Shown: in pieces, positions 3 to 36,933 of the stretch | Position numbering within the stretch: position 1 is the first letter of the stretch | Layout: every line of letters begins with the position of its first letter | Origin: an uncultured Acidobacteriota bacterium | Lineage (GTDB): Bacteria; Acidobacteriota; Thermoanaerobaculia; Multivoradales; UBA5704 | Length of the DNA stretch: 64,000 nt | Assembly: GCA_963770895.1 (NCBI GenBank) | Contig: CAVYRF010000001.1 | Coordinates: 1,472,001-1,536,000 of the forward strand | Direction of reading: 5' to 3' | Position numbers and translations under genes: made by a program | The notes under the pieces: generated by a model | Told to the model about the DNA's origin: nothing | What the model saw: the letters and a program-made list of their open reading frames with translations, nothing else | Database searches by the model: none

Positions 3-851
3 GACCCGACGCGGCCGGAGCTCGAGTGCGTGCGCACCACCTGGGGCGGCACGCGCAGCGTCTACATCCCGGGATCGAGCCTCAAGGGGGTGATGCGCTC
101 GCATGCCGAGCGGCTCCTGCTGAGCGAAGACGTGCGGATCACGCGGACCTTCGAGGGGCAGGACGCCTTCGATCAGAAGGCGCCGGGGCCGGCGGTGTAC
201 CGAGGCAGCTCGCCGCTCGGCCGCACCTTCGGCAACCTTCACCTCAAGGGGCACGTGGCGGTGTCGGATCTGCTGCCGGGAGCGCACGAGGCGGAGGGCA
301 GCGAGGAGCGGGCGCGCCAGGTCGCCCTGGCCAACGCCGTCGAGCAGCGCAACGGCGTCGCGATCGACCGCCTGCTGGGCTCGGCCGCGCACCAGGCGCT
401 CTTCGACCAGGAGGTCGTGGTGCAGGGGCGCTTCGACGGCCGGGTACTGCTGCGCAACGTCCAGCTGTACCAGCTCGCGCTACTGCTCTTGGTGGTGCGC
501 GACCTCGACGAGGGCTATGTGCAGATCGGGTCGGGCACGACCCGCGGCAACGGCTGGGTGCGCGCCGAGGTGCGCGAGATCGTCGTCGAGAGCCGGCGCG
601 GCAAGGGCGATCCGCGAACCTTGCGCGGCGTCGGGTCCTTGGTGGCGGACCGGCAGGCGTACGGCCTGTTTGCCGACGACGAGGTGGAGCTGCCCGAGGG
701 GATGTCGGCGCGGCCGCACCTGGTGTGGGACCAGCTGGTGGTCAGGGGCGGCGAGGCGATCGATGCGCTCGCCACGTCGCTGGTGGCGGGCCCCTGGACG
801 AAGTTCCTGGAGGCGGCACGGCGCAGACGGCGTGGCGAGTGGACGGCCTGA
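3..851 (+). CDS. csx7: CRISPR-associated RAMP, Cas7 group (Csx7/Csm3-like), 5'-partial
   Basis: Frame open from the window edge: DPTRPELECVRT..YIPGSSLKGVMRSHAER, RNGVAIDR, and the G-rich loop IGSGTTRGNG, all Cas7-group RAMP motifs. Confidence 0.85.
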   Translation, partial: DPTRPELECVRTTWGGTRSVYIPGSSLKGVMRSHAERLLLSEDVRITRTFEGQDAFDQKAPGPAVYRGSSPLGRTFGNLHLKGHVAVSDLLPGAHEAEGSEERARQVALANAVEQRNGVAIDRLLGSAAHQALFDQEVVVQGRFDGRVLLRNVQLYQLALLLLVVRDLDEGYVQIGSGTTRGNGWVRAEVREIVVESRRGKGDPRTLRGVGSLVADRQAYGLFADDEVELPEGMSARPHLVWDQLVVRGGEAIDALATSLVAGPWTKFLEAARRRRRGEWTA

Positions 852-879
852 GCCGGACGCGGCAGGCAGGGAGCGAGGC

Positions 880-1305
880 ATGGAGAGCTTGACCCAGGAG
901 GAGACAGGGGGCGGCCCGGCGGCGGATCTGACGCCTAGGATCGAAATCCGCGATCTGCCCGCCGCTCGCCGGGACGCAGAGGTCGCCGCGCTGGACGAGC
1001 CGTGGATCGCCGACGAGGCCGCCTGTGACGCCGGCTTGCGGCGCGGGGTGGGCGGGCGGGCGCTGCGGCCGCGCGGCCTGGCCTTCGACGAGCGCACCAC
1101 GGTGGTGTGGGACGAGGACGGGGTGCAGGTCCTTGCCGCGGGCGCGGACGCCGAGGCGGGCGGGCCTTATGACATCGCGTTGCGCAGCTGCGTCCTGGTG
1201 CGCGACGGTTTCGCGGGGCCGCCGCAGTTGTTCCGCGTCGACTACCTGCGGCGCGGCGCTCTGCTGGGCAGCCGCTACGTCACCGCGGAGGAGCCCCATG
1301 CGTGA
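880..1305 (+). CDS. Small type III-D subunit, Csx19-like
   Basis: 141 aa between two RAMP genes, overlapping the next start; C-terminal VDYLRRGALLGSRY resembles Csx19 ends. Mostly a positional call. Confidence 0.5.
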   Translation: MESLTQEETGGGPAADLTPRIEIRDLPAARRDAEVAALDEPWIADEAACDAGLRRGVGGRALRPRGLAFDERTTVVWDEDGVQVLAAGADAEAGGPYDIALRSCVLVRDGFAGPPQLFRVDYLRRGALLGSRYVTAEEPHA

Positions 1306-2473
1306 TCCCGAGGCGTACAGGGCCGAAGGGCGCAACGATCCGCTCGCGCCCGAGCAGCGCGAGGCGCACCCGTACGACTTCGTGTCGCTGCCGGAGACGG
1401 TTGCCAGCGGCCACGCGGTGGGGCACGACCGCTACCTCGCCGAGCGGCTCAGCGGCACGGTGGTGCTGGAGTACCGGACCGAGTCGCCGCTGCACGTCGG
1501 CAGCGGCGTCTTCGAGACCGCCGAGGAGTGCGGCTTGAGCGGTGGCGCGGCGCCGGTGCGCGGCATCGTGCGCCGGCAGGGCAGGCCGGTGCTGCCCGGA
1601 TCGAGCTGGAAGGGGGCGGTGCGCGCGCGCTTCGAGGCCATCACGCGCTCGCGGTTGGGCGTGGGGGTGCCGCCCCTGCGTTTGCGCGGCGAGCGGTTGC
1701 GGGGAGGGCTCGAGAGGGTCGAGAAGCTGCCCGCGCCGCTCACGCCGAAGGGGGCGACCGGGTCGGTCGCAGTGGTGCTGCCGGCTGACCTGCCGGAGGT
1801 CAGGATGGTGCGCCGCGACGGCGTCAGCGACAACAGGGTACGCGAACGGCTCAGAGATCTGTCGCCCGGCGAGGCGCTCTTCGGCGCCATGGGCTACCGG
1901 GGGCGCGTCCACCCCGCCGACGGCACGATCGAGGGCCCGGCGGCGAGCGTGCCGCTGGGGGTGCCGCCGCTCGAAGGCCCGGCGCTGCACCGCCTCGCCA
2001 AGCCGGGCGCGGCGCGGATCGTCGGCGACCGCGTCGAGATCAGCGCGGTCGAAGGGCGGAAGTTCTATTACGACGGGCCGCTGCGCGACCACCGGATTTT
2101 GGGCCAGGGCGAGGAGGGCCGCGCCGTCCACGAGCAGATCGATCACGTCCCGGCGGGTTGCTCCATCCGGCTCCACGTGTTCGTCGAGTCGGTGACCGAA
2201 GCCGAGATCGGTGCGCTCTTGGTGAGCGCCGGGCGCGGCGAGGACGGCGGCGTCCTGCGCTTCGGCGGCTTCAAACCCGCCGGCCTGGGCAAGGTGACCC
2301 TGGTGGCTGCCGATGCGCAGCTGCGCCGTGGAGCGGGGGGCAGCGGCTGGCGGCGGGCTGCCGCGCCGGCCTTCGACGTCGATGCCGCGGTGGCCGCGGC
2401 CAGGAGCAGCGGCCTGATCGATGCCGGGGCGCTGGCCCAGTTGAACGAGATCACCAGGCGAGAGCGGCCCTGA
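1298..2473 (+). CDS. CRISPR-associated RAMP, Cas7 group (terminal III-D RAMP)
   Basis: PYDFV, SPLHVGSG, LPGSSWKGAVR, LFGAMGYRGRV, GRKFYY and the FGGFKPAGLG glycine loop; GGAGGAG RBS before the ATG. Confidence 0.85.
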   Translation: MRDPEAYRAEGRNDPLAPEQREAHPYDFVSLPETVASGHAVGHDRYLAERLSGTVVLEYRTESPLHVGSGVFETAEECGLSGGAAPVRGIVRRQGRPVLPGSSWKGAVRARFEAITRSRLGVGVPPLRLRGERLRGGLERVEKLPAPLTPKGATGSVAVVLPADLPEVRMVRRDGVSDNRVRERLRDLSPGEALFGAMGYRGRVHPADGTIEGPAASVPLGVPPLEGPALHRLAKPGAARIVGDRVEISAVEGRKFYYDGPLRDHRILGQGEEGRAVHEQIDHVPAGCSIRLHVFVESVTEAEIGALLVSAGRGEDGGVLRFGGFKPAGLGKVTLVAADAQLRRGAGGSGWRRAAAPAFDVDAAVAAARSSGLIDAGALAQLNEITRRERP

Positions 2474-2484
2474 GGCGGACGTCG

Positions 2485-2868
2485 TTGCTCACCAACGAAC
2501 AGGTGCTGTCCAAGGCGGACGTTCTCGCCCGGCAGGTCGTCGAGGGGGATGTCCAGGACAACCAGCTGGCATTCGTCGTTGCCCATCTGAAGCGGCACCG
2601 CGACGTGGCCGCGACGCTCGAACTGCTGAAGAACCTGGAAGTCAGCCCGTTCGCCAGACGCACCCACCAGACGCCTGGTCAGTTCGCCGGCCTGCGCCGG
2701 TGGGTGAGCGCCAGCCTGAGCACGATCGCCGATTGGCAGGATGCCGCCGCCATCGTCGGTTGGGCGCGCCGGCTCGCGGCCTACTACCGGCCCGCCGGCC
2801 AGGGGCGCCGGGGTGGGCGGGCGGGGCGCGGCGGGCCGGTCGGCGGCGGATATCGCGGGCAGCGGTGA
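2485..2868 (+). CDS. Putative Cas11/Csm2-like small subunit
   Basis: TTG start after GAGG; small helical protein ending IVGWARRLAAYY plus a Gly/Arg tail; lies in the operon after the RAMP gene. Confidence 0.55.
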   Translation: MLTNEQVLSKADVLARQVVEGDVQDNQLAFVVAHLKRHRDVAATLELLKNLEVSPFARRTHQTPGQFAGLRRWVSASLSTIADWQDAAAIVGWARRLAAYYRPAGQGRRGGRAGRGGPVGGGYRGQR

Positions 2869-2946
2869 GGGGGCCGGGCGGACCTGAGGCTTACGGTGGG
2901 ATTGTGGCATGTTGGGCGTACCCTTGAGCTCGGACGCTTTGCGACC

Positions 2947-4242
2947 ATGCAAGCTGAATCGGACGTGCCGCGACCGCGGGGGGCCTTGGTTAGTTTGGGG
3001 GGCAGCCCCGAACCGGTGATCTGGGTGCTGAACCGGCTGCAGCCCGAGATCGTGCTGCTGTTCGTCTCGCGCGACAGCTCCCGCGAGGTGGGGCGGGTGA
3101 TGGGCGCGCTCGACTACCAGGTCCGCGCCTTCGATCAGATCGTCACCCCTTCGGCGGAGGTGCTGAGCGACTGCTACCGGGCGCTGCGTCAGGAGCTGCC
3201 GCGGAAGCTGGTGCAATGGGGCCTGCGGGCTGCGGATCTGGCGGTCGACTACACCGGCGGCACCAAGCCGATGTCCGCGGCATTGGTTCTCGCCACCGCG
3301 GATCAAGTCCATCAGTACTCGTATGTCGGTGGTGCGGAGCGCGACAAGGGGGGCCTGGGGGTGGTGGTGGCGGGCAAGGAGAGGGTTTGGTTCGTACAGA
3401 ACCCCTGGAAGGATCTGGCGCGGGACGAGCTGATGCGCGTCGCGGTGCTGTTCCAGAACGTCCGCTACCTGGTCGCCCACGATGAGCTGATGGCGCTTGC
3501 TGAGCGTGCCGACGCCGAGACGCGGCCCTTGCTCGCGGCGCTGGGGAAGCTGGCGTTGGGGCTGGCGCATTGGGACGCGTTTGGGCACGCGAAGGCAGTG
3601 CCTCTTCTGGGCGAGGCCTTCGGCTTCTTCAAGGTCTATGGGTTATCTGTCCCTCATGCGCGATGGAGGAGCTTCGCGGCGACGATCGAAGGCAGCCTGA
3701 GCTTCCTGCGGCGCATTCCCACGAAAGCCGGTCCGGCGCCAGGAGAGGTTCTGGAAGGGGGGCGGGCGGTGGTCTTGGACCTGATTGCCAACGCCGATCG
3801 GCGCGCCCGCGTCGAGCACAAGCACGAGGACGCCGTCGCGCGCTTGTACAGTTGCGTCGAACGCGCGGCTCGGTTCCGCCTGCTGGCCAGGACGCCGGCG
3901 ATCGATAATGAAAAGGTGCCGCCCACGCTGGTGCCGGAGGGCCTGCGGGAGGAGTTCGTGCGGCGGTTTGGCGATGGCTCGAAGCCGGTGTTGAAGCTGC
4001 CTCTCGATGCCAGCTTCCAGCTGCTCGCCGCGCTCGGGGATCCCTTGGGCGCAGCGTTTGCGGCGCGTCAGGACGAGGCACGGATGCTTCTGGCGCTGCG
4101 CAACCGTTCGATCCTGGGGCACGGGATGGAGCCGGTGACGGAGGAGGGGTACAGGCGGTTCAGGGCGTTCGTGGTGGGTTTGCTGGCGGTGGAGGAGGAG
4201 GAGCTGCCGCGGCTGCCGGAGCCTCCGCCGGTGGTCGAGTAG
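2947..4242 (+). CDS. TIGR02710-family CARF-HEPN cyclic-oligoadenylate effector (Csm6-like)
   Basis: CARF motifs SLGGSPEP and VDYTGGTKPMSAAL; DLIANADRR and DAVARLY; HEPN-type RNRSILGHG. Confidence 0.85.
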   Translation: MQAESDVPRPRGALVSLGGSPEPVIWVLNRLQPEIVLLFVSRDSSREVGRVMGALDYQVRAFDQIVTPSAEVLSDCYRALRQELPRKLVQWGLRAADLAVDYTGGTKPMSAALVLATADQVHQYSYVGGAERDKGGLGVVVAGKERVWFVQNPWKDLARDELMRVAVLFQNVRYLVAHDELMALAERADAETRPLLAALGKLALGLAHWDAFGHAKAVPLLGEAFGFFKVYGLSVPHARWRSFAATIEGSLSFLRRIPTKAGPAPGEVLEGGRAVVLDLIANADRRARVEHKHEDAVARLYSCVERAARFRLLARTPAIDNEKVPPTLVPEGLREEFVRRFGDGSKPVLKLPLDASFQLLAALGDPLGAAFAARQDEARMLLALRNRSILGHGMEPVTEEGYRRFRAFVVGLLAVEEEELPRLPEPPPVVE

Positions 4243-10312: not shown

Positions 10313-10651
10313 GTGCCGCGGCAGATGGAAACCGCGGACCCAACGTGGGCCTCCCGCGTCGCTACGCGCCGCAGTCCCCGCCGCCCACCGCGGCCCCCGG
10401 TCCGCCGTTCCCACAGCCGCTTGGAAACCGGCTCCCGGCCCCCCACCACACCCGCCCTCCACCGCCCACCCTCGCCGGTTACCACGACCTTCCACAACCC
10501 CGACAATGGGAGTCATATACACTGAGAAAAAGGACTACAGGAGAAGCCCAAGCCGACCACCTCAACCAACCCTGAGCCTCCGCTCACCGCCTCGCTTCGA
10601 CGGGTGGTCGCCTTCCGTCGGAATGGGTTGTCGCCTTCGCCGGAATTCGCA
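10313..10651 (+). mobile_element. Solo right end of the IS21-family element
   Basis: Near-identical to ~27920-28253, ending GGTGGTCGCCTTCCGTCGGAATGGGTTGTCGCCTTCGCCGGAATTCGCA. Confidence 0.85.
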
Positions 10652-17082: not shown

Positions 17083-17955
17083 CTACGCATCGAGAAGCCT
17101 CTGATTCTCCTCGAAATGGTCCGGGCTCAGATAGCCAAGCGCCGAGTGACGGCGCTTGCGGTTGTAAAAGACCTCAATGTACTCGAACAGCGCCTGCCGA
17201 GCCGAGTCGCGAGTTGGGGGCACCGGTTCACCGGCGAAAAGCTCTGTCTTGAGCGAGCTAAAGAAGCTTTCCGCCGGAGCGTTGTCCCAGCAGTTGCCAC
17301 GGCGACTCATGCTGACGGCAATGCCCCTTACGGCGAGCTCTTGCCGATACGCTCGACTCGAATACTGGCTACCTCGGTCGCTGTGGTGAAGGAGACCCAA
17401 CTTGGGTCGACGCTGCGCCAGCGCTTGCTCCAGCGCGGACAGAGCGAGTTGCTCGGTTAATCGATCGCTGGTCGCCCAGCCGACGATCCGGCGGGAAAAC
17501 AGGTCGAGCAGCACAGCCAGGTAGAGCCAGCCCTCCACGGTCCAAATGTAAGTGATGTCGCCGTTCCAGAAGGCATCGGGCTCGGTGACCTGGAACTTCC
17601 TCTGCAGTTCGTTGGGGGCCACCGGATTGACCGCGCTGGCCTGGGTTGTGGTCTTGAACCGTCGCCTGGCGCGAGCGACGAGATGATCCTGCCGCATCAG
17701 ACGGGCAATCCGATGGCGGCCACAGGCCACGCCGTCGCCCGACAATTCGGCGTGAATGCGCGGACTACCATACCGATGGCGGCTCTGCCGGTACGCCGCC
17801 CGAATCTGAGCCAGTAGAAGGCGATCTTGCCGGATACGCAGGCTCTCCTCTCGCGAGAGCCAACCGTAATATCCACCGCGCGACACACCCAGGGCCTGGC
17901 ACATTCCTGTCGTCCTATGCCGGCCGCTTTGGGCTTGGATGAAGCGGAACTTCAT
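17083..17955 (-). CDS. IS3 transposase OrfB (DDE)
   Basis: YGSPRI, WNGDITYI, HSDRGSQY, GNCWDNAPAESFF, YNRKRRHS. Confidence 0.95.
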   Translation of the reverse strand: MKFRFIQAQSGRHRTTGMCQALGVSRGGYYGWLSREESLRIRQDRLLLAQIRAAYRQSRHRYGSPRIHAELSGDGVACGRHRIARLMRQDHLVARARRRFKTTTQASAVNPVAPNELQRKFQVTEPDAFWNGDITYIWTVEGWLYLAVLLDLFSRRIVGWATSDRLTEQLALSALEQALAQRRPKLGLLHHSDRGSQYSSRAYRQELAVRGIAVSMSRRGNCWDNAPAESFFSSLKTELFAGEPVPPTRDSARQALFEYIEVFYNRKRRHSALGYLSPDHFEENQRLLDA

Positions 17956-18248: not shown

Positions 18249-19378
18249 TGCGCACACCCTCTCGCCCATTATGCGGGCTTTTCGAGGTGTCCGCTAAACC
18301 GGGGCAAGGCCAGACATCGCCCGCTCGGAGGTCGTCAGGCTGCACCAGAGCCTCTCCGCCACGCCCTACAGCGCCAACCGCGTCCTGGCCCTGCTGTCGA
18401 AGATGTTCAACCTGGCGGAACGCTGGGGGGTGCGAGCGGCGGGCACCAATCCGTGCCGCTTCGTCGACAAGTTCCCGGAAAAGCGCCGCGAGCGCTTCCT
18501 GAAGGGTGCCGAGCTGACCCGTCTCGGCGAAGTGTTCGCCGCGGCCGAGCGTAACGGCGCCGAGCCGCCCGCGGTCATCGCCGTTCTCCGGCTCCTGGTC
18601 CTGACCGGCTGCCGCAAGTCCGAGATCCTGACCCTGCGCTGGGTGGACGTGGACCTTGAGCGCGGCGCGCTGCACCTGCCGGATTCCAAGACCGGCCCGA
18701 AGAGCGTGCCGCTGGGCGCCGCCGCGACGGAGATCCTGGCCAGCCTGGCCCGGGTCGCCGGCAATCCGTACGTCTTTCCCGGCGAGCGTCCGGGCTCGCA
18801 TTGGGTCAACGTCGAGCGCTCCTGGCGCCGCCTCCGCCGCGCCGCCGGATTCCCCGAGCTGAGAATCCATGATCTGCGTCATTCCTACGCGGCGATCGGC
18901 GCCGCCGCCGGCCTGGGCCTGCCGGTGATCGGCCGGATTCTCGGCCACACCCAGGCGAGCACGACGCAGCGCTATACCCACTTCGCCGATGACCCGCTGC
19001 GCGCGGCGGCCGACCGCATCTCGAACGAGATCGCGGCGGCGCTGCGTGCCGGGACCAATGCCGAGGTCCCGCCCGAACCCACGGCTGGCCCGAACGACCA
19101 TCGCGACGCCCGGCGGCCAGCTGAGCGGGTACGGTGATCCGCGCAAGGAACGCGGCGCGCTCCTGGTGGGGCTGACCAGGCTGATGGCGCCGGAAAGGAG
19201 GACCAGAACGAAGAGCTAGGACCGGGGGACTTCGCGCCTCGCAAAGACAGGAGCTGAGTCCCTTCCCACAAGCCTTTGACACAGCGGGGGCGGCACCGTG
19301 CCGCTCCCCGCACCAGACAGACGCCCCCGGCGGAAGAGCCAACTCCCGCCGAGGACTTGCCGAGCACGGAGGAACCCC

Positions 19379-20430: not shown

Positions 20431-20679
20431 ATGAGCACCATTCATATCGAAGTACCGGACAGCGTCCTGCTCAGCACTGGTCAGTCGGAAGAAGAATTCG
20501 TGCGCGAGGCCAAGCTGCTGCTCGCGATCAAGCTGTTCGAGCTTGGTCGCCTGTCGTCGGGTAAAGCGGCAGAGCTCTGTAGCATGAACCGCGTGGACTT
20601 CATGCTCCTGGCCGCCCGGTCAGGCGTGCCACTGGCAGATCTCGATGCCACCGAGCGTGAGCGGGAATTCTGCGCTTGA
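20431..20679 (+). CDS. UPF0175-family antitoxin
   Basis: AIKLFELGRLSSGKAAELCSMNRVDF; overlaps the toxin start. Confidence 0.85.
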   Translation: MSTIHIEVPDSVLLSTGQSEEEFVREAKLLLAIKLFELGRLSSGKAAELCSMNRVDFMLLAARSGVPLADLDATEREREFCA

Positions 20680-21170
20680 AAAATGGCCCGTTGGTCTGCG
20701 ACTCCGGCCCCTTGATCGCCTTGGCAAGCGTCGCGCAACTTGATCTCTTGCCGGCGCTCTACCGTAGGGTGATCGTACCCGAAGCGGTCATCCAGGAAGT
20801 CTCGCAATCTGGCGCGGGTCGCGTAGGTGGTGCCGAGATAGCAGCGGCAAAATGGATCGAAGCTGTGCCATTCGAGCAGCGCACCTCTCATCCACTGCTG
20901 ACCGCCGAGTTGGGTAGCGGGGAAAGCGCGGTCCTTAACATTGCGCTGCTCCACCGCGCAGAGCTGGTTCTGATCGATGAGCGGCGAGCGCGACGCATCG
21001 CGGCACAGATCTTTGGCCTCTCGGTCAAAGGCACAGCCGGCATCCTTGTGGAGGCCAAGCGCAACGCTCTGGTCTCCAGGATTCGGCCCTTTCTCGAATC
21101 GATGGCGCAGAAGGGATACTACCTTTCCCCCCTCGTTGATCAAGGCCGCCTGCTCGGCAGCAGAGGAATA
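20676..21170 (+). CDS. DUF3368 PIN-domain toxin, +1 frameshift near the C-terminus
   Basis: VCDSGPLIAL, LGSGESA, LIDERRAR, GTAGIL; one extra C in the run at ~21127 relative to the paralogous remnant at 28787-28852. Confidence 0.8.
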
Positions 21171-21600
21171 GCTGTCAGCGCTATGACCTTGCGCGTGAGC
21201 TAAATTTTTCGATGCATCGAAAATTGAAGCTGCCGCGCAAGTAGCGCGAATCGGAGCGTGCTCCCACAGTCACGATGCACACGGATTTGGGGGGGACCCT
21301 GGGCCGATCAGGATTAGCTGCCAGGCCCGGCCGGCGACGCGTCGGTGATCGTGCCGCGAAACGTCTTCTTCACCTCGTGGATTCGCCGCAGCTCCCGGGC
21401 GTTCTTCAGCCCGAGCAGCACCAGCAGCTCGCGAGCCCGGTACACCGGCCGCGGCTCGCCCGGATCGATGCACGCGTCGTCGCTCGCGAACACCACCGCC
21501 TCGTCCAGCACCTCGCTCCACACCTCGACCACCAGGCCCGCACAAGCGAAGTCCGCCAGCTGCATCGCGCACGGATCGCCGGCGAGCAGCCCCGCGCCAG
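21105..21600. repeat. ~500-bp inverted repeat of ~28260-28852
   Basis: Reverse-complement similarity covering the toxin 3' end, the intergenic palindrome and the 3' half of the 'MDARDLL' gene. Confidence 0.85.
21206..21223. promoter_or_regulatory. Perfect 18-bp palindrome TTTTCGATGCATCGAAAA (copy at 28735-28752)
   Basis: AT-rich palindrome unchanged in two otherwise diverged copies; function unknown. Confidence 0.5.
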
Positions 21601-22862
21601 ACACCCCGAGGCTGGTTGGGTGAAGGTGTAAGCGGATGGATGCGCGAGACCTGCTGGCGGAGCTGGCGGCGCGCGGGGTCGAGGTCCGCGCGGCTGGCGA
21701 GGATTTGGAAATCCGGCCGGGTGGGGCGGTGCCTGCGGAGTTACTGGCGGGGTTGCGGGCGCGCAAGCCGGAGGTGCTGCGACGGCTGGCGCGGCCGGCG
21801 GTGGGCGACGCTCTGGGGGGAAGTGTCGGCGTGCAGTGCGTATTCCGGTCGAAGGCGACCACCGTTTCCGGTCGCAAGGCGACCACTGATTCCGACGGAA
21901 GGCGACCACCCATTCCAGTCTGAAGGCGACCACTTTTAGCCCTTGGCCCGGAAGGGTGGTCGCCATCCCCGGAAGGGTGGTCGCCTTCGATCGGAATCGA
22001 GATCGAGAAGGGCGGTGACAACAAGCGGCGGCTCCGTACCTCTGGCATGCTCGTCTCCATCGACGAAGGGAGCGAGATGCCGGCACGGAGAGTGAACGTG
22101 AGAAAGATTCGAGAGATGTTGCGATTGCTGTGGGTCTGCGGTCTGAGCCAGCGGCAGGTGGCGGACTGCTGCGGGATAGGCAAGACGACGGTTGTGGAGT
22201 GCGTGGCCCGTGCGCGCAGGAGCGGGCTGGACTGGTCCGTGGCGGCGGAGCTGGGCGAGGAGGCGCTGGAGCGTCGGCTCTACCCGGTGGTCGAGCAGGT
22301 GCCGGCGGCGCGACGGCCAGCGGTGGACTGGGCGGCCGTGCACAGCGAGCTCAAGGGCAAAGGGGTGACCCTGTCGCTGCTGTGGGAGGAGTACCGGGAG
22401 AGGGAGCCTCACGGCTACGGCTACAGCCGGTACTGCGAGCTGTACGGCCAGTGGCGGGGGCGGGTGGACCTGTCGATGCGCCAGGTGCATCGGGCTGGCG
22501 AGAAGCTGTTCGTCGACTACTGCGGCGCGACGGTGCCGGTGGTCGACGCCGGCACGGGAGAGGTGCACGCGGCGCAGATCTTCGTGGCGGTGTGGGGGGC
22601 GAGCAACTACACCTTCGCGGAGGCGACGTGGAGTCAGGGATTGGCGGACTGGATCGGCTCGCACGTGCGGGCTTTTGAGTTCGCCGGCGGCCTAACCGAA
22701 ATGGTGGTTCCCGATAACTTGAAGTCGGCGGTCAGCCGGCCGTGCCGGTACGAGCCGGAGCTGAACCCTACCTATCACGATTTGGCGTTGCACTACGGCG
22801 TGGCAGTGATGCCGGCGCGCGTGCGGCGGCCCCGCGACAAAGGCTGCGCTTCATACTGCACC

Positions 22863-24944
22863 TCATCCGTTGGAATCGGTGCGACTTGCGTGCCGCACCG
22901 TGGGCCGCAAGGGCTGCGGCTTGTGTTTGAATTTGATAGGCCGGTCGGCACCTGGAAGCTCAAAAAGGTGCTGGCCCTTGTCGTTGTATGCATGGGCCTT
23001 GAGCAGGCCCGCGCGGCGCCAGAGCTTGATCGTGCAGGGAGTGACGTTGAGCCGCTTGGCGATCTGCGTGATGTCCATCATACCCGCCGCCCGAAGACGA
23101 TCGTATCGGCTCCGGAGCTTGTATTCCAAGCGGATTCGATAGACGAATACCGGCTTGAAGTTCTTGCCACTGCCTGACCGGAAAGCTTGTTGGTTGAGGA
23201 TGGCTGCGATCTGTTTGTCGGTATGATGGTCGAGCAACCTGTCGATTTCCGCCACCACCTCCTTGCTGGTTTGAGAGATCTCCCAAACTCGCAACGCGGG
23301 CGGGAGGCCCAGTGTCGTGGTTGCGCCACCGCGGAAGCGAATCTGCGCCGTGATCTGTGTTCCTCTGCTGAGTGTTACATCTTCGATGAGAAGCCTGACC
23401 ATCCGTTTGCGGTCGCGATCCGTCGTCGTTGGCTCGTACCAGAGCTTCGTCAGATCCGTAGCGAGGGCGAGGATGCGCGAGCGTTGCGCTTCATCGATAA
23501 CTATTGTCTCGGCTTTCCGCCGTCGCTCATACTCTTCCTGAGCACTGGTGAGCGTCCGCAGCTTCCGGTTCCAGTCAGCCTCGAGTTCGTCAGCCACCAG
23601 ACGATTATCGGGATCGACCTGCATGAAACGCCGGCGTGCCAGGTCCGCCTCATAACGAGCGCGCTCGACCTGTCGAGACCATAGCCGCTCCGCTTCATCG
23701 GCGCGCGACTGAAGCTGCTGCTGAACCGTCAGCGTGGCCTCGAGAGCCATCGGCGTCATGGCTTCGACGAGGAGGCGCCCGACCGCCGCATCGATGTGGG
23801 TGCCCGAGATGCTCTGGCATAAGGGTTCGCCGCGCTCGATGCCTTGTCGCTGGCAGGTGTAGACAGTTAGGCGCTTGCCGTAGCTGTGGTTGTAACGGAC
23901 CGTCATCCGTTCACCGCAGACACCGCAGATCACCAAACCCTGGAGGAGTGCTGGCCCTTCTCGGGGAGGGCTCTTGCGGCGTTCGCTGCCTTGGGCTTGC
24001 GAGTTCTCGCGCAGGCGTCGCTGGTTTTCCTCGAACTCGTCCCAGGTGATGTAGCCTGGGTGCGAATCGCGGATGAGTGCGGTCCACTCCTCCCGCGGCA
24101 ACCTCTCAAACGTGCCGCTGCGATTCCCATAGTGGCGTTGTCGACTACGGCCAAAGAAGAAGGCTCCGGCAAATCGCGGATTGTGCAGCACCCAGAGGGC
24201 ACGGGAATGCTGCAGATCTCCCCAGATCACCTCACCTTTGGCCGGCCCCGTCCGCACGCGGTGAGGAAACCGGAGTCCCTGTGCGCGGAAGGCCTTCATC
24301 GTTCCGGTCGCCGAACCTGTGCGGCGGAAAATCTGGAAGAAGGTGCGGATCGTCTCCTGCACCTGCTTGTCAGGATCGAGAATAACGCGCTGTTGAGCGT
24401 CGTAACGGAAGCCAATGGGAAGTGGCGACTCAAGCTCGCCGCGGCGCGCCTTGTTGAGGATGCCGCCCCGTAGTCGCGCCCGCAGCACGTGCAGCTCCGC
24501 CTCGCTCATGGTGCCCTTGAGGCCAAGCAGAAGGCGGTCGTTGAAGTGCGCGGGGTCATAGACGCCATCTTCGTCGAGGATGAGCGTGTCGCTGAGCGCA
24601 GAGATCTCGAGGAGCCGATGCCAGTCGGAGGAGTTCCGCGCCAGCCGCGACACCTCGAGCCCCATCACGATTCCCGCGCGTCCCATGCCGACATCGGCGA
24701 CAAGTCTCTGGAAGCCGTCGCGTCGCTCCGCCGACGCGCCCGACTGCCCCTGGTCGCAGTCAATGATGATGATCTGCTCCTGGGCCCAACCTAGCGCTAC
24801 CGCTCGCTGCCTCAGGGCGTACTGGCGATCGGTACTTTCGGTGTTCTCGAAGACCTGTCGCAGCGTGGACTGCCGGATGTAGAGGTAGGCGTTTCGCTTA
24901 AGGTGTCGGGCCGTGACCTTCTGGTGCGCTTCGTTGCCCATCAT
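22863..24944 (-). CDS. Large serine recombinase (resolvase, recombinase, Zn-ribbon and coiled-coil domains)
   Basis: AYLYIRQST catalytic Ser; EVSRLAR; LQGLVICGVCGERM; VDPDNRLVA. Confidence 0.95.
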   Translation of the reverse strand: MMGNEAHQKVTARHLKRNAYLYIRQSTLRQVFENTESTDRQYALRQRAVALGWAQEQIIIIDCDQGQSGASAERRDGFQRLVADVGMGRAGIVMGLEVSRLARNSSDWHRLLEISALSDTLILDEDGVYDPAHFNDRLLLGLKGTMSEAELHVLRARLRGGILNKARRGELESPLPIGFRYDAQQRVILDPDKQVQETIRTFFQIFRRTGSATGTMKAFRAQGLRFPHRVRTGPAKGEVIWGDLQHSRALWVLHNPRFAGAFFFGRSRQRHYGNRSGTFERLPREEWTALIRDSHPGYITWDEFEENQRRLRENSQAQGSERRKSPPREGPALLQGLVICGVCGERMTVRYNHSYGKRLTVYTCQRQGIERGEPLCQSISGTHIDAAVGRLLVEAMTPMALEATLTVQQQLQSRADEAERLWSRQVERARYEADLARRRFMQVDPDNRLVADELEADWNRKLRTLTSAQEEYERRRKAETIVIDEAQRSRILALATDLTKLWYEPTTTDRDRKRMVRLLIEDVTLSRGTQITAQIRFRGGATTTLGLPPALRVWEISQTSKEVVAEIDRLLDHHTDKQIAAILNQQAFRSGSGKNFKPVFVYRIRLEYKLRSRYDRLRAAGMMDITQIAKRLNVTPCTIKLWRRAGLLKAHAYNDKGQHLFELPGADRPIKFKHKPQPLRPTVRHASRTDSNG

Positions 24945-25252
24945 GTCGTCACTCCTCTCGGGGCGTAAGCCGACAGAGCCATTTCGGCAAGGAGCATGGC
25001 CACTTCGACTCGGAAGTCCTGTGGCATGAAAGATGGCTCCGCGGCTGATCGCCGAGCCCCCGCCTCGGACGGCCTGATCAGCGCCGCGCACCTCTCCATC
25101 CAGGCGGCCATGCCACTGCGGATGAACAATCCCCATCCAACCTCACGACTTGACCCGGCAAGACGACCGAGCGCGCTACGCCGGAGATCCTCGTAGCCAG
25201 CGATCAGGGCATCTTGCGCTCCCGCCATGACAGAGTCGGACACGGAGGTCAC
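24941..25252 (-). CDS. Conserved small protein of the recombinase element
   Basis: YEDLR..GWGLFIRSGMAAW; 4-bp overlaps with both neighbours. Confidence 0.75.
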   Translation of the reverse strand: MTSVSDSVMAGAQDALIAGYEDLRRSALGRLAGSSREVGWGLFIRSGMAAWMERCAALIRPSEAGARRSAAEPSFMPQDFRVEVAMLLAEMALSAYAPRGVTT

Positions 25253-25716
25253 CGTCGTTTTTTTTCCAGCCGACGCAGCGCACGCTCGATGCTGCGGGGA
25301 TGAACCTCAACACCGAAGCGTTCCTTGACCAGGGGCACGAGCGCCGCCGCGGTGAGCGAGAGGTCGGCCCCCCGCTGCTCTTCAATAAAGGCCATCACGT
25401 CCGGGCTGAGCTTATGAGCCTCTCGCGGCCCGCGCCTGCGTGGCAAGAGGCCAGCGAGCCCGCCGTCGGCGAAGGCGTCGCGCGCCTTGTAGAACGAGGG
25501 CCGCGAGAAGCCGAAAGCCTCTGCCGCTTCGGCGACAGGCGCCTCGTCGACCTGCGCACGCCGGATCATCTCGTACTTGACCTGGAGAAGATCTCTTGGA
25601 TCGAAGAAGTCCGACCGTGCGAAGAGCTCGTCGGTGACGCGCTCCGGCCGCGGGTTGAGGGTCCGGCGCTCCCGCAAGGCGGCGAGCTTCGGATCGGAGG
25701 GCTTGCGGTCTGGCAT
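25249..25716 (-). CDS. Helix-turn-helix protein of the recombinase element
   Basis: FFDPRDLLQVKYEM..FGFSRPSFY..GLLPRRRGP..VHPRSIER. Confidence 0.85.
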   Translation of the reverse strand: MPDRKPSDPKLAALRERRTLNPRPERVTDELFARSDFFDPRDLLQVKYEMIRRAQVDEAPVAEAAEAFGFSRPSFYKARDAFADGGLAGLLPRRRGPREAHKLSPDVMAFIEEQRGADLSLTAAALVPLVKERFGVEVHPRSIERALRRLEKKRR

Positions 25717-25888
25717 CAGTGATCTCCAACATGTGTAAGAGGAATTATGCCGTCTATCTAGAGCACAGTCAAGCCCCCGCGACGCGCAACTACGTAATCT
25801 ACGGAGATTGCTGTGCTTTCTCTGGGCACGCCTATGCGTTTTGAAACCGAGTGCGGCGGCATAGTTCCCTTGACACTAGCGGCATAAT

Positions 25889-26198
25889 TTACTTTACTCT
25901 TGCTTCGTCTTTAAGTTGGGTAATGAGGTTAGCCAGCCGCAGGAGATCCTCCGTCCTGAACCGGCTCTGGCCGGCCGCCATCACCCGGAATGGGTCCAGC
26001 GGCGCAACGTTGGTCCATCCGATGGGCATGTGGTGAAGCCGGCCCTTATCATCGAGGAAGTAGACGCGATCCTCGCCCCACGCCTGCTTGTACTCCACCA
26101 GTTCGAACTCGCAACCAGACAAGGGATGGAACGGGTGTGTCACTCGAACAAGCGGCCGCACATCTGTTGAAGCTGCTGTAGTTGACTGCCTTCTCCAA
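25889..26198 (-). CDS. DUF5372 (Y4bD-like) protein, open to the element boundary
   Basis: [25 protein letters not shown]; no RBS+ATG in the integrated state (only a GTG at 26161). Confidence 0.75.
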
Positions 26199-26987
26199 GG
26201 CCAAAGTCGAGGTCGGCGTGCAGGTGGTCGAGCGCTGGATCCTGGCGCGTCTGCGGCGCCGGAAGTTCTTTTCTCTTGCTGAGCTCAACGAGGCGATTGG
26301 AATGCTTTTGATACGCTTGAACGAGCGTCAATTCCGCAAGCTTGAGGGCTCGCGCCGGTCGCTCTTTGAGAGCATGGAGCGGCCGGCTCTGCGGGCGCTG
26401 CCGGCGTCGGGCTTCAGCTACGCCGAGTGGAAAAAGGGGCGCGTCGTGGCGGACTACCACGTCGAAGTCGACGGCCACTATTACAGCGTGCCGTACCAGC
26501 TGGTGAGCCAGCAGCTGGACGTGCGGCTGAGCGCGAGAACGGTGGAGTTCTTCGCCAAGAGCAAGCGGGTGGCGAGCCATGTGCGCTGCTTTCGCCGGGG
26601 AGCCCACACGACGCAGCACGAGCACATGCCGCGGCCGCATCGGGCGTATGCGGAGTGGACGCCCGAGCGGCTGGTGCAGTGGTCGCAGACGACGGGGCCA
26701 TCGGTCGCCGGCCTGATCGAGCAGGTGATGTCGACGCGGGTGCACCCGCAGCATGGCTTCCGCTCGTGTTTGGGGATCTTGCGGCTCGGGCAGCGGTATG
26801 GCAACGAGCGGCTGGAAGCGGCGTGCCAGCTGGCGCTGGAGATCGAAGGCGCGTCGTTCCGCAGCGTGCGCTCCATCCTGCAGGGAGGGCTGGATCGGCA
26901 GATGGATCTGGCCGCCGAGTCGGCGCGGCGACCCCTCGTGCATGAGAACCTGCGCGGCGCTTCGTACTACGGCGGGGAGCAGAAGCC

Positions 26988-27740
26988 ATGCTGACCCATC
27001 CGACGCTCGACAAGCTCCAGGCCCTGCGGCTGACCGGCATGGCCAAGGGGCTCGAGGAGCAGCTGCAGATGACCGGCATCGACGAGCTTGGCTTCACCGA
27101 GCGCCTGGGGCTGCTGGTCGATCGCGAGATGACGGAGCGCGAGAACCGCCGGCTGAAGGACCGTCTCGCCAAGGCACGGCTGCGCCAGGCCGCCGCGGTC
27201 GAAGACGTGGACCTGCGCCTGCCGCGCGGTCTCGATCGGGCGCTGTTCCTGGCACTGTGCTCATGCCAGTGGATCACCCAACACCTTAACATTTTGATTA
27301 CGGGGAAAACCGGCACGGGGAAAAGCTTTCTGGCCTGTGCGCTGGCGCACAAAGCGTGCAGGGAAGGCTTCACCGCGCTGTATCACCGTGTGCCACGGCT
27401 GCTGTCCGAGCTTGCCACCGGCAAAGCGGACGGCCGGTACTCCAAGCTGCTGGCCAACCTTGCCCGGGCCGACGTCCTCGTGCTCGACGACCTCTGTCTG
27501 CATCCGTTCACCGACGCTCAGCGGCGTGATCTGCTGGAGATCCTCGAAGATCGCTACGGCAGGCGCTCGACGGTGGTGACGAGCCAGCTGCCGGTCGCCG
27601 CCTGGCACGATGCGATCGGCGACGCCACGCTGGCCGACGCCGTGCTCGACCGTCTGGTGCACAACGCCTACGAGCTGCCGCTTAAGGGCGAGTCGAAGCG
27701 CAAGGACAAGGCGCCGGCGCCGGCCCAGGGGCCGTCGTGA
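26988..27740 (+). CDS. istB: IS21 helper ATPase IstB
   Basis: Walker [32 protein letters not shown]. Confidence 0.95.
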
Positions 27741-28923
27741 CGCGATCGCGGCGCGCCGTGGCGGCGCCTGGTGCCCCCCGCCCCCCCGCGAGCCCCAGCG
27801 CCTCGCCTATGGCGTCCGGCGAGACCTCGACAGCGGCCGGCCGCCGCCCGGCCGCCCCACCGCCCGGCCCGTCCCCCACCCACCCCCACCACCCCCCAAC
27901 GCACGCATGGGCTGTGGAAGGTGCCGCGGCTGATGGAAACCGCGGACCCAACGTGGGCCGCCCGCGTCGCTACGCTCCGCTGCCCCCGCCCGCCGCGGCC
28001 CCCGGTCCGCCGTTCCCACAGCCGCTTGGAAACCGGCTCCCGGCCCCCCACCACACCCGCCCTCCACCACCCGCCCTCGCCGGTTACCACGACCTTCCAC
28101 AACCCCGGCGACGAGGTCATATACACTGAAAAAGGACCACAGGAGAAGCCCAAGCCGACCACCTCAACCAACCATGAGCCTCCGCTCACCGCCTCGCTCC
28201 GACGGGTGGTCGCCTTCCGTCGGAATGGGTGGTCGCCTTCGCCGGAATCCGCAGCGTGCAGCGCGGAGCTCCTCGCCGGCGATCCGTGCGCGATGCAGCT
28301 GGCGGATTTCGCTCGTGCGGGCCTGGTCGTTGAGGTGTGGAGCGACGTGCTCGGCGAGGCGGTGGTGTTCGCAAGCGACGAACGCGTGCATCGACCCGGG
28401 CGAGCCGCGGCCGGTGTACCGGGCGTGCGAGCTGCTGGTGCTGCTCGGGCTCAGGGACGCTTGGGAGCTGCGGCGAATCCACGAGGTCAAGAGGACGTTT
28501 CGCGGCACGATCACCGACGCGTCGCCGGCCGGGCCTGGCGGCTAATCTTGATCGGCCCAGGGGCCCCCCCTAATCCGTTTGCATCGTGACTGTGGAAGGA
28601 GGCGCTGGAGATGCGCCAGACGGGCCGCGGCGGCGCGCGGGCGCGGGAATGACCTGTCGCTTGGTCGGTAAGCGGGCTCGATCGGCACCGCTCCGAGCAC
28701 GCTCCGATTCGCGCTATTTGCGCGGCAGCTTCAATTTTCGATGCATCGAAAAGTTTAGCTCACGCGCAAGATCATGGCGCTGACAGCTATTGCTCTGCCG
28801 CCGAGCAGGCGGCTTTGATCAGCGAGGAGGAAAGGTAGTATCCCTTTTGCGCGAGCGGGGGCTCGGGACGAGGTGATGCCGTTAAATCAAGCTTGAATTC
28901 TGCAAGCGCGATATGCTGAATCA

Positions 28924-29478
28924 ATGTCCCGGCAGAACAGGGAACTCGCGGCTTGGATGCGGTGCGCCCGGGTGGTTCGCTTGGTCAGTCCCACGTTGCT
29001 GGCCTGCGCGTTCCTCTACGTGGCCATCGTGGCCTTCTCGGAGGCGCGGAACCTACGGCTCCACCATGAGGCGACGGGTTGGCCTAGGGCGAAGGGCCTG
29101 ATCCTGCAGTCGAGCTTCCACTTTTCCCACTACCGCCACGCCCATTTTCGCAACTCTACGGCGCTTTACCATTTGGACCTGATCTATAGCTATCAGCTCG
29201 AGCCGGGCAGCAGCACGTACTACGAGAGCGAGGGCCTCTGCTTCGACGAAATCTACGAAGGGCTCTACGAGGCGCGGCGCATCGCCGCCCAATATCCAGT
29301 TGGCAGGGAGGTGCGGGTGGCGTACGATCCGCAGCACCCGACCAAATCCTGCCTCGAGCCGATGCGGTACGACCGGGGGCATGGGAGCCTCACGCTCGCC
29401 TTTCTCGCACTCGTCGCCGTAATCGCCCTGACCGCGGCGTTGTGGGTGTTGTGGCAGGCTTCGTCCAGGCGGACGTAA
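28924..29478 (+). CDS. DUF3592-like membrane protein
   Basis: Two TM segments flanking WPRAKGLILQS..YSYQ..YPVGREVRVAYDPQHP. Confidence 0.7.
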   Translation: MSRQNRELAAWMRCARVVRLVSPTLLACAFLYVAIVAFSEARNLRLHHEATGWPRAKGLILQSSFHFSHYRHAHFRNSTALYHLDLIYSYQLEPGSSTYYESEGLCFDEIYEGLYEARRIAAQYPVGREVRVAYDPQHPTKSCLEPMRYDRGHGSLTLAFLALVAVIALTAALWVLWQASSRRT

Positions 29479-29560
29479 CGGCCGCGTGCGCATTGCCGCG
29501 GGATTCCCGGCATGCCAGACGCAGGCATTGCTGGTGACTGCTGCCAGCCATCGGTCCGCG

Positions 29561-30035
29561 CTATTCCCCTACGAGCCTCAGAGCGCGATTCATTACTGAG
29601 TCGGACAGCTTGTCGAAGCGATTCGAGCAAAGGCCGAGCTGCGACAAGCTTTCCGTTTTTCTTGCCGAGCAACACGATCCCGAGCGTTCCTCGCACTGGT
29701 ATGCCAAGGGTCTGCGCACACCTCCGTGCCACAAGGTCATCGATGATGGCTTCCGAGCCGGGTTTGGCGGAGCACCAAGACAGAACCGAGGATTCGCCCG
29801 GACCAAGATCCCATGCCTGAACTTTAGGCGGCACGGCCGGGGCTGCCATGACCTGGAGCCAGGGAACGGAGGCTATCGCCTGCGCTGCTGGATCTCTGGC
29901 GCCACCATGCTGGATTTCATTCGCCACTGGTGCCGGGACCACTACCTCGGATGCGATGAGCCGCAGAAGATCCAGCTGGCCCGCTCGCGTCAAGAAGATG
30001 AGCGGTGAAGCGTTGACCGCGGGCCGTTCAGCCAC
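29561..30035 (-). CDS. DUF3368 PIN-domain toxin, frameshifted near the C-terminus
   Basis: NASPLIFL, DLGPGES, IIDDLVARRCA, RGTLGIVL; the natural tail LSDSVMNRALRLVGE* is in another frame. Confidence 0.8.
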
Positions 30036-31480: not shown

Positions 31481-31910
31481 TCAACGTTCCCGCTCAGCTG
31501 GCCGCCGGGGGGCGCGGTGGTCGTTCGGGCTAGCCGTGGGTTCGGGGGGGACTTCGGCGTTGGTTCCGCCACGCAGCGCCGCTGCGATCTCGTTCGAGAT
31601 CCGGTCGGCCGCTGCGCGCAGCGGGTCATCGGCGAAGTGGGTATAGCGCTGCGTCGTGCTCGCCTGGGTGTGGCCGAGAATCCGGCCGATCACCGGCAGG
31701 CCCAGGCCGGCGGCGGCGCCGATCGCCGCGTAGGAATGACGCAGGTCATGGATTCGCAGCTCGGGGAAACCGGCGGCGCGGCGGAGGCGGCGCCAGGAGT
31801 GCTCGACGTTGACCCAATGCGAGCCCGGACGCTCGCCAGGAAAGACGTACGGATTGCCGGCGACCCGCGCAAGGCTGGCCAGGATCTCCGTCGCGGCGGC
31901 GCCCAGCGGC
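31481..31910 (-). pseudogene. C-terminal fragment of a tyrosine integrase, near-identical to ~18705-19137
   Basis: VPLGAAATEILASL..HDLRHSYA..TQRY; similarity continues into the 3' flank (31300-31480 versus 19140-19300). Confidence 0.9.
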
Positions 31911-32100
31911 ACGCAGCCCGAAAAGGTTGCCGTCGCGCAGGAAGTCGAGGCGGACTTGGCGCAGGGCGTGATCGACCGTCCATTTGTCACGCACGAAGTG
32001 CTCGACGAAAGCCTGCGCGAACTCCATAGCAAGCCCTTGGTGGACCTTGACCTCAGTGCCAATAACGCCCGCAGCCCGGGCCGTGCCGCTCGCTGCACCC
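31910..32100 (-). pseudogene. Possible CHAT-like domain C-terminal fragment
   Basis: AAGVIGTEVKV..FAQAF..ALRQVRLDFL..NLFGL. Confidence 0.4.
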
Positions 32101-36125: not shown

Positions 36126-36295
36126 GAGTCGCCGCCGGCGTTACAGGTCAATGCCGATCAGGGCTTGGCTGCATCTTCTGAGCGTTACGTCACGGCTGCC
36201 GCAACAGGTCGAGCGAGCGGCGCAAGCGCAAGCAGGCGTTGTAACGGATGTAACGAGCCCAGCCCCCGAGGCTCGCTGGGAGAAGGTGTAAGCGG

Positions 36296-36745
36296 ATGGA
36301 TGCGGGAGAGCTGCTGGCGGAGCTGGCGGCGCGCGGGGTGGAGGTCCGCGCGGCTGGCGAGGATCTGGAGATCCGGCCGGCCGGGGCGGTGCCCGCAGGG
36401 TTGCTGGCGGAGCTGCGGGCGCACAAGCCGGAGGTGCTGCGACGGCTGGCGCGGCCGGTGGTGGGCGACGCTCTGGGGGGAGTGTCGGCGTGCAGCGCGG
36501 GGCTCCTCGCCGGCGATCCGTGCGCGATGCGGCTCGCGGACTTTCCTCGTGCGGGCCTGGTCGTTGAGGTGTGGAGCGACGTGCTCGGCGAGGCGGTGGT
36601 GTTCGCAAGCGACGACGCGTGCATCGACCCGGGCGAGCCGCGGCCGGTGTACCGGGCGTGCGAGCTGCTGGTGCTGCTCGGGCTCAGGGACGCTTGGGAG
36701 CTGCGGCGGATCCACGAGGTCAAGAGGACGTTTCGCGGCACAATC
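36296..36745 (+). pseudogene. Third copy of the satellite-type 'MDAGELL' gene, 3' end replaced
   Basis: Collinear with 21636-21836 plus 28254-28510; similarity stops at FRGTI. Confidence 0.7.
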
Positions 36746-36933
36746 CGCCTCCACCCGGCCGGGCGTCCGGCGGCGCTCTCGCCGCCGGCGGGGAGAGCGT
36801 ATCGACCGACTCACCCGCCCGCCTCCTCCCGACGATGCTCTCTGCGTGACCGCCGCCGGGCTGGTGCCGCTTCGTTGGTATCCGGCTGCCGGGCGATCGA
36901 TGGGGGAGAAGCAATGGCGTTGCGCGGCTCCTG

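Follow-up and report, generated by a model that had tools for sequence, protein, structure and literature searches.

In a 64-kb stretch of contig CAVYRF010000001.1 from an uncultured Acidobacteriota bacterium (hereafter the window), the transposase gene istA of an IS21-family insertion sequence (IS) is split by a 3358-bp element that encodes a large serine recombinase (LSR; 22841..26198, minus strand, one AA counted). We consider it likely that this is a small autonomous integrative element, whose recombinase would join its own attachment site (attP, two arms around an AA dinucleotide) to a bacterial attachment site (attB) that is the DNA of the catalytic-glutamate motif of rve-type DDE transposases. 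The excised element would form a circle in which both arms are joined around one AA, giving attP, and integration would proceed by conservative exchange at the AA that starts a K or N codon, four codons before the E. Residence would split the active site (D and D on one side, E on the other) with the element antisense to the transposase, and excision would restore the transposase. Recognition would be by the LSR itself, from a degenerate DNA consensus worth about 20-26 bits; direction or regulation would be controlled by at least one of three accessory proteins, and the element could ride on its host IS. Sister lineages would have been retargeted to fixed positions in IS91/ISCR transposases and in IS66 tnpB. 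Since the motif is conserved across IS21, IS3, IS481-like, ISNCY and TniA-like transposases, nearly every genome or plasmid would offer a site where one recombinase lineage can land.

Position of the insertion in istA

The 5' part of istA (22047..22841, plus strand) encodes a helix-turn-helix (HTH) region and the two aspartates of the DDE triad, and its frame ends in ...RRPRDK. The 3' part (26199..26994, plus strand) resumes at 26199/26200 as (K)AKVE, has its catalytic E codon at 26209-26211 and its stop at 26994, and also encodes the C-terminal barrel of the Mu-transposase type. Homologues of istA begin at the methionine of MPARRV, which lies at 22077 in the window. The two halves abut at one point of the NCBIfam IS21 transposase profile (N-half 1-227, C-half 227-294). 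Four intact IstA homologues, P0121 (96% identical to the N-half), P0122 (93%), P0124 and P0126 (both 87-89%), are exactly colinear with both halves, with zero residues lost or gained.

The motif d-K-a-k-v-E of P0122 aligns with K229-G-K-V-E233 of the solved IstA of IS5376. In the structure paper on IS5376 IstA the DDE triad consists of D124, D187 and E233, and mutants are reported to lose activity; the alignment places all three residues, with the E inside the K-x-K-V-E motif. A PDB sequence search with the istA C-half alone gave no match, and it was the intact homologue P0122 that yielded the alignment with IS5376 IstA. The insert separates D124 and D187 from E233, and the transposase is therefore presumably inactivated.

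An AA dinucleotide is present at both junctions. At attL (22839..22840, plus strand) it supplies bases 1 and 2 of the K codon that precedes the catalytic E by four codons, and its counterpart at attR lies at 26197..26198 (plus strand). Conservative exchange at this AA yields an in-frame empty istA site. An alternative register with five shared bases (22840-44 / 26197-26201) was rejected as the crossover, as it gives a +1 frameshift in istA and breaks the N9/N11 spacing of the family. This spacing consists of AA, 9 nt and TTCATACTGCACC on one side, and of TGYAGTTGA, 11 nt and AA on the other. A degenerate search of the window for a second, uninterrupted D-K-x-K-V-E site found none, and the window holds no empty copy of the IS21 element.

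The interrupted gene is part of a complete IS21-family element (21837..28253, plus strand), 6417 bp long with the insert and 3059 bp without it. The N-half of the transposase matches the NCBIfam profile transpos_IS21 with 207.8 bits (cutoff 160), and Mu-transpos_C_2 and IstB_IS21 also match. The termini are TG...CA. The left end (21837..21997, plus strand) carries a GGCGACCAC-type motif in four direct copies (21854-21934) followed by two inverted copies (21955-21985), and the right end (28189..28253, plus strand) carries two end-motif repeats (28205-28237). The 8-bp target duplication GCGTGCAG is found on the left at 21829..21836 and on the right at 28254..28261, both junctions having been aligned with an uninterrupted paralogue near 36.49 kb. 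The boundaries of the IS are fixed because this uninterrupted copy of the target exists. Downstream of istA, the helper ATPase gene istB (26988..27740, plus strand) is full length (IstB_IS21 profile 2-233 of 238).

The original prediction, made from the letters of the window alone, had described this arrangement well. It placed the element within the K-A-K-V-E motif of istA, where both halves are indeed in frame and colinear with intact homologues, and it took the E of KxKVE for the third DDE catalytic residue, the position that aligns with E233 of IS5376 IstA. The empty site that it proposed, CGC GAC AAG GCC AAA GTC GAG, is the one obtained by exchange at AA and would restore a full-length IstA colinear with its homologues. 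Its statement that istB and both IS ends are intact is likewise borne out by the full-length istB, the TG...CA termini and the 8-bp duplication.

Insertion sites of related elements

The recombinase belongs to a large family, with at least 8000 scored cluster matches at E values up to 1e-20, and many of its relatives lie on contigs of ~3.3-3.5 kb, which is about the element's own length. Scanning one genome per species confirmed at least 602 loci, and the best 80 of these (55-67% identity) were analysed. By their record titles, these 80 loci come from more than 12 bacterial phyla and two archaeal bins. The gene order is kept: 72 of the 80 loci have DUF5372 upstream of the recombinase, and 76 contain an intact HTH gene. 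Flanking DNA is available for 72 loci and lacking for eight.

With the fixed spacing, 55 of 61 junctions on the recombinase side and 64 of 68 on the DUF5372 side have the AA, and 52 of the 56 relatives with two flanks have it on both sides. Together with the AA at both junctions in the window, this is consistent with AA serving as the crossover dinucleotide of an LSR. An AA that forms the first two bases of a K or N codon, followed by an E codon at +4, occurs at 49 of 68 junctions, as against 3.9% of 40,428 background AA sites in the same loci. Two further loci fit as variants, L012 with AG for AA and L070 with a 1-nt frameshift. The AA present at both junctions is non-palindromic, so the orientation of insertion is fixed, and the element is always antisense to rve transposases.

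The interrupted genes were identified by scanning the in-frame flank halves with Pfam and NCBIfam, the frame being set by the AA codon. Taking the longest open frame at the junction as the target gene was tried and dropped, because the DNA is GC-rich and antisense frames win. Transposase genes are the targets in 64 of the 72 flanked loci, 53 of them with profile hidden Markov model (HMM) support. The targets are of the IS21 (20 loci), IS3 (14), IS481-like (10), ISNCY (6) and other rve-like kinds (2), of the IS91/ISCR kind (11), and in one locus of the IS4 kind, at the E codon of its own motif. The break lies between profile positions 226 and 227 of 294 in IS21, 313 and 314 of 369 in IS3, 235 and 236 of 368 in ISNCY_2, and at about 228 and 229 of 284 in IS481. 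In the Pfam profiles, matches to rve extend up to position 102 of 102, and those to rve_3 begin at 16. Apart from the break, the interrupted genes are mostly complete (of the 14 IS21 N-halves scanned, 13 start no later than profile position 4), which fits a recent or reversible residence.

The 11 IS91/ISCR targets, seven with profile support, fall at two sites: two loci, near profile position 365, have the element in sense orientation, and the other nine, near 412-426, have it antisense. In the recombinase tree the clade antisense to IS91/ISCR genes is monophyletic (support 100). Elements in IS21, IS3, IS481-like and ISNCY targets are interleaved in the tree, even among near-identical recombinases, and near-identical recombinases occur under different phylum labels. 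In one genome, two elements that are 98% identical (L062 and L063) have targets that differ right beside the AA; judged from these sequences, they are independent insertions.

Some related loci have a more complex structure. In L037 (1877-5033) another IS21-family insertion divides the DUF5372 gene that belongs to the element, with IstA and IstB between the pieces, so the parasite itself was struck by an IS. The recombinase gene of L010 (6001-9908) is interrupted, residues 1-527 and 551-671 being encoded ~2 kb apart, and L074 (9647-11533) has a second, distant (35% identical) LSR gene 1.6 kb downstream of the element. In L069 (3981-4709) the DUF5372 side adjoins a group II intron reverse transcriptase and the other side is an IS21 transposase half; the arrangement reflects either one more level of nesting or a rearrangement that came later. 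In L020 (3190-4761), from an uncultured Acidobacteriota bin, the frame after the IS3/IS481-like 3' half enters a beta-lactamase-fold domain (PF00144), which probably belongs to an adjacent serine hydrolase gene that shares the frame.

Plasmids of cultured bacteria provided an independent sample. Matches to the element were found at 892 places in 454 plasmid records, with up to nine places per plasmid, and 14 loci (52-63% identity) were analysed. Their targets are IS21 (5), IS3 (3), IS66 tnpB (5) and TniA-like (1) genes, with profile-HMM support in 12 of the 14, and a single junction was resolved in L083, L093 and L094. The IS66 tnpB genes are broken between positions 60 and 62 of 101 in the Pfam profile TnpB_IS66, and between 58-59 and 60 of 90 in the NCBIfam profile. 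One of the IS21 loci is ISAzo4 on plasmid 2 of Aromatoleum aromaticum EbN1. This plasmid holds two ISAzo4::element composites (L084 and L089, the second left out of the sample), 100% identical over at least 5.5 kb, ~65 kb apart, with flanks that diverge on the one side that can be checked. Their sequences fit an element that rode on its IS, and the pair may alternatively stem from independent recent insertions. One of the two adjoins a cluster of five tyrosine-recombinase genes. Plasmids carry multiple copies of the element (up to the nine places mentioned) although a conservative recombinase alone cannot raise copy number.

The module could also be an inherited passenger of this IS21 lineage, as in a transporter IS, with no independent insertion. 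The intact istB and IS ends around it and the two identical ISAzo4 composites agree with such a history, but we find it barely credible, as intact IstA homologues (93-96%) have no such module and align colinearly over the break, the catalytic domain is divided by the insert, and the same module with the same ends sits in IS3, IS481-like, ISNCY, IS91/ISCR, IS66 tnpB and TniA-like genes.

To describe the sites, we built a position weight matrix from 38 distinct rve-type attB sites. It contains 25.7 bits, mostly in the AA, in a G two bases after it and in ..GTCGAG.., which encodes V-E; the left half of attB carries little information. When each site is left out in turn, the true sites have a median score of 20.6, and no position in ~0.5 Mb of flanking DNA reaches this value. 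The site in the window scores 19.9 with a matrix built without it. Several of the top background matches are themselves the E motifs of intact transposases. The best unoccupied site of the window (17283, score 16.7) is also one of these, in the E motif (...CWDNAPAESF...) of an intact IS3-family transposase gene at 17083-17955 (minus strand). Near the core, attP and attB of the same element are alike at 7.00 of 19 positions, compared with 6.27 (standard deviation 0.20) in mismatched pairs, a likeness reported as matched by none of 2000 shuffles, with a shuffle maximum of 7.02.

Could a serine transposon of relaxed specificity insert widely, and only its copies in dispensable DNA persist? The glgB and citrate synthase sites receive matrix scores of just 6.0 and 6.1, a threshold at the 10th percentile of true sites (8.4) is matched by 12.9 background positions per 100 kb, and close relatives of the recombinase use very different attB sequences, all of which would suit such survivorship. 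Yet neutral DNA is abundant (intergenic DNA, other pseudogenes, the rest of the IS), and 49 of the 68 junctions lie on one codon. In four families the two halves meet at a single profile position, the median true-site score is unmatched in the ~0.5 Mb of background, and most of the interrupted genes are otherwise full length. Survivorship thus appears improbable as the source of the pattern, which we read as one sequence specificity for the shared DDE-E consensus, with occasional retargeting.

Several observations count against this specificity or narrow its base. The background matches at the 8.4 threshold mean that a single matrix does not explain every site. Eight of the 72 flanked loci lie outside transposase genes, in other recombinase genes (2; integron integrase and Xer-like), in ordinary genes (2; glgB and citrate synthase) and in targets of no assigned kind (4), so recognition is of DNA and is imperfect. 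The IS4 locus (L014) agrees with an exchange at AA only if the position is shifted by 1 nt, and in L012 the dinucleotide is AG. Eleven targets in genomes (L003, L019, L021, L024, L030, L050, L056, L063, L066, L070 and L076) were assigned by junction motif or tblastn alone, and in plasmid loci L082 and L094, which have no profile match, the family was read from the junction motif only. The analysis covers the best 80 of at least 602 loci, many of them in metagenome bins, and taxonomy labels of short contigs may be wrong. Finally, integration is inferred from junction anatomy, and neither an excised circle nor an empty allele of the same IS copy was seen.

Beyond the window, the idea that the element uses a conserved transposase motif as attB gains strong support, as the homologous codon is struck not only in IS21 but also in IS3, IS481-like, ISNCY and TniA-like genes. 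The insertion sites of related recombinases, which the original prediction had proposed to collect, are enriched at an AA followed by an E codon at +4 (the 49 of 68 junctions against 3.9% of background), and the related loci did not show homologues inserting at unrelated sites with no shared motif. Its other proposals fared less evenly. The precise reversibility holds in its sequence logic, with AA at both junctions and a colinear restored frame; no excision product or circular form was observed. Hitchhiking on the IS has one circumstantial case in the identical ISAzo4::element composites and is otherwise inferred. As for a switch of IS21 activity, the split of the DDE domain between D187 and E233 argues for the 'off' state, and the 'on' direction was not observed.

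We lean slightly towards a broader reading, in which the family consists of obligate parasites of transposable elements that would use the most conserved transposase codons, at the DDE glutamate of rve enzymes or at fixed motifs of IS91/ISCR and IS66 TnpB, as a universal attB, silence the host IS in a restorable manner, and gain copies and horizontal reach by riding on it. With the same slight preference, transposase active-site codons would form a pan-bacterial attB, read by recombinases of degenerate but predictable specificity. That the family is common on rhizobial plasmids is part of this reading, and we hold it with no more than the same modest confidence.

Genes of the element and its surroundings

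The element encodes four genes, all on the minus strand: DUF5372, an HTH protein, a small open reading frame (ORF) and the LSR. Its ends are imperfect inverted repeats. On the recombinase side the arm TTCATACTGCACC (22850..22862, plus strand) lies 9 nt from the AA and is present in related loci with three mismatches or fewer; on the DUF5372 side the arm TGTAGTTGA (26177..26185, plus strand) lies 11 nt from the AA.

The LSR (22863..24944, minus strand) has 693 amino acids. A Resolvase catalytic domain (PF00239, E 1.1e-18, profile 1-144 of 145) is followed by a Recombinase domain (PF07508, E 3.6e-13), a zinc ribbon (Zn_ribbon_recom, PF13408, E 1.2e-09) and a C-terminal MerR-like HTH. Across 19 recombinase sequences R24 and Q25 of the R-Q-S motif are invariant, and S26 is present in at least 90%. 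The start of the recombinase gene overlaps the stop of the small conserved ORF (ATGA; 24941..25252, minus strand, 103 amino acids), which is translationally coupled to it. The small ORF matches no family; its structure model is helical and of low confidence (predicted local distance difference test, pLDDT, 71), with three helices predicted.

The HTH protein (25249..25716, minus strand, 155 amino acids; HTH_32/HTH_28) matches the first ~100 positions of the transposase profiles of IS630 (E 5e-13) and IS481 (E 1e-12), and in sequence it resembles the N-terminal DNA-binding region of these transposases. A sigma-70-like promoter, a consensus match only, lies 5' of its gene (25744..25772, minus strand). 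The DUF5372 protein (25889..26161, minus strand, 90 amino acids) is assigned to PF17342 with 85 bits against a gathering threshold of 25 (E 3.7e-24, profile 1-77 of 78) and is predicted to form an SH3-like barrel with a C-terminal helix. Its model (pLDDT 88.8) had no match in the PDB at E values up to 0.001, only generic SH3/KOW-like barrels. The three conserved accessory ORFs, none with a known family role, include candidates for a directionality factor.

The accessory genes also suggest a different way of finding the target, in which the HTH protein or DUF5372, or a contact with the transposition machinery, chooses the site or assists in the choice. The likeness of the HTH protein to the N-terminal 100 residues of IS630/IS481 transposases, the conservation of the accessory genes across the family, the low information in the left half of attB and the use of near-identical attP arms for IS3, ISNCY and IS481-like targets would all agree with it. 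We regard it as unlikely, since the 25.7 bits of attB suffice for direct reading, off-target sites retain the AA-G core, and the insertion point is internal to the gene and distant from the IS ends, the expected binding place of a transposase-like HTH. Direct reading of the DNA by the LSR is preferred.

The IS21 element is flanked by inverted copies, 92-93% identical, of a ~500-bp module (21105-21597 and 28261-28852). A third copy (36264-36774) carries the uninterrupted IS21 target, and the module encodes small ORFs without a Pfam family. The final ~340 bp of the IS21 element (27921-28253), end repeats included, recur with 93% identity at 10313-10651, and this copy, by its sequence, looks like a solo IS right end. 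Pairs of UPF0175 antitoxin-like and DUF3368 (PIN-like) genes occur on both sides of the IS region (20431-21203 and 29265-30035), and tyrosine integrase genes are present as fragments (18403-19137 and 31481-32098). The surroundings of the IS21 element look like a graveyard of mobile DNA. A search of 21500-28600 against Rfam returned no ribozyme or guide-RNA candidate and only a spurious microRNA-family match, a sub-threshold mir-584 match at 21891-21995 on both strands, which was dismissed as the palindromic arrangement of the IS21 end repeats and not an RNA gene.

Elsewhere, the window contains type III CRISPR-Cas genes (30-4242) for two RAMP proteins and a Csm6-like HEPN protein, and a large nonribosomal peptide synthetase/polyketide synthase cluster (36934-58784) with a radical SAM protein, thioesterases and an MFS transporter. 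A 1304-amino-acid open frame on the minus strand (60082-63996), with no Pfam match at E values up to 1e-5, reaches to within five bases of the window end.

Relation to known systems

In the open-access literature, supplements excluded, we found no description of serine-recombinase elements that target transposase genes or active-site codons as attB, and no paper that names DUF5372. The accessible parts of Durrant et al. 2022 and Khedkar et al. 2022 do not mention targeting of transposase genes; the Pfam enrichment tables of target genes in their supplements may bear on novelty.

If the proposed mechanism is true, a whole class of mobile DNA is annotated only as 'recombinase family protein' beside transposase pseudogenes, and many split IS21, IS3, IS481, ISNCY, IS66 and IS91 genes in annotations would be explained. 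The ecology of selfish DNA would gain a layer in which transposons have parasites of their own, with a possible restraining or modulating effect on IS activity. One recombinase lineage would read a DNA consensus that is constrained by a protein motif across families, and compact serine recombinases would have natural landing sites in almost every bacterial genome and plasmid.

Recombinase elements within coding sequences are known from the skin element of B. subtilis (SpoIVCA), the fdxN element of Anabaena (XisF with XisH/XisI) and SPbeta (SprA/SprB), where small accessory proteins set the direction of recombination. As in those systems, the window has an LSR element inside a coding sequence, where conservative excision is predicted to restore the frame. 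The likeness raises the question of whether the element is a host-domesticated developmental switch of the skin or fdxN type, which would turn on IS21 transposition at a set time. The frame that excision would restore and the best NCBIfam match of the recombinase, XisF, speak for such a switch. However, the match has 99.2 bits, far under the XisF equivalog cutoff of 375, the element is found in multiple copies (892 places in 454 plasmid records), and it is spread over many phyla, with near-identical copies in different phyla and residence in many different IS families; a domesticated switch is thus very improbable. The skin, fdxN and SPbeta elements are single-copy, host-integrated and lineage-specific, whereas the family of the window element is multi-copy, spans phyla and resides in selfish genes. 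An autonomous integrative element remains the preferred reading.

Tn4451 and Tn5397 (with TnpX and TndX) are, like the window element, small non-phage elements moved by an LSR. Elements of this kind are expected to excise as a circle and to insert at sites that loosely resemble their own joint and have a fixed central dinucleotide, which is GA in Tn4451 and Tn5397. Unlike them, the window element has an AA core, no resistance cargo and a conserved module of DUF5372, HTH protein and small ORF, and its family targets overwhelmingly one codon of transposase genes. A Pfam scan of the recombinase at E values up to 0.01 found no DUF4368, a domain that, according to Durrant et al. 2022, is present in 63% of the multi-targeting LSR clade of TnpX and TndX. 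The closest solved full-length LSR is SprA (E 1.4e-6). With no DUF4368, an XisF score of 99 against 375 bits and this distant match to SprA, the window element is, at the level of sequence, a member of neither the Tn4451/Tn5397 nor the skin/fdxN/SPbeta group.

A serine recombinase is also the transposase of the small elements of the IS607 family. The IS607 enzymes are small, have an N-terminal MerR-like HTH before the catalytic domain, and show low target specificity. The window enzyme differs in having the architecture of an LSR, with catalytic, Recombinase, zinc-ribbon and long C-terminal domains.

The use of a conserved feature of another mobile element as a landing site is known from the 'res hunters' Tn5053/Tn402 and from streptococcal integrative mobilizable elements that insert in the conjugation genes of integrative conjugative elements. 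The window element would share with them the choice of another mobile element as a safe site and a free ride. Those systems use DDE or tyrosine enzymes at res sites or conjugation genes; here, an LSR would inactivate transposases at their catalytic codons.

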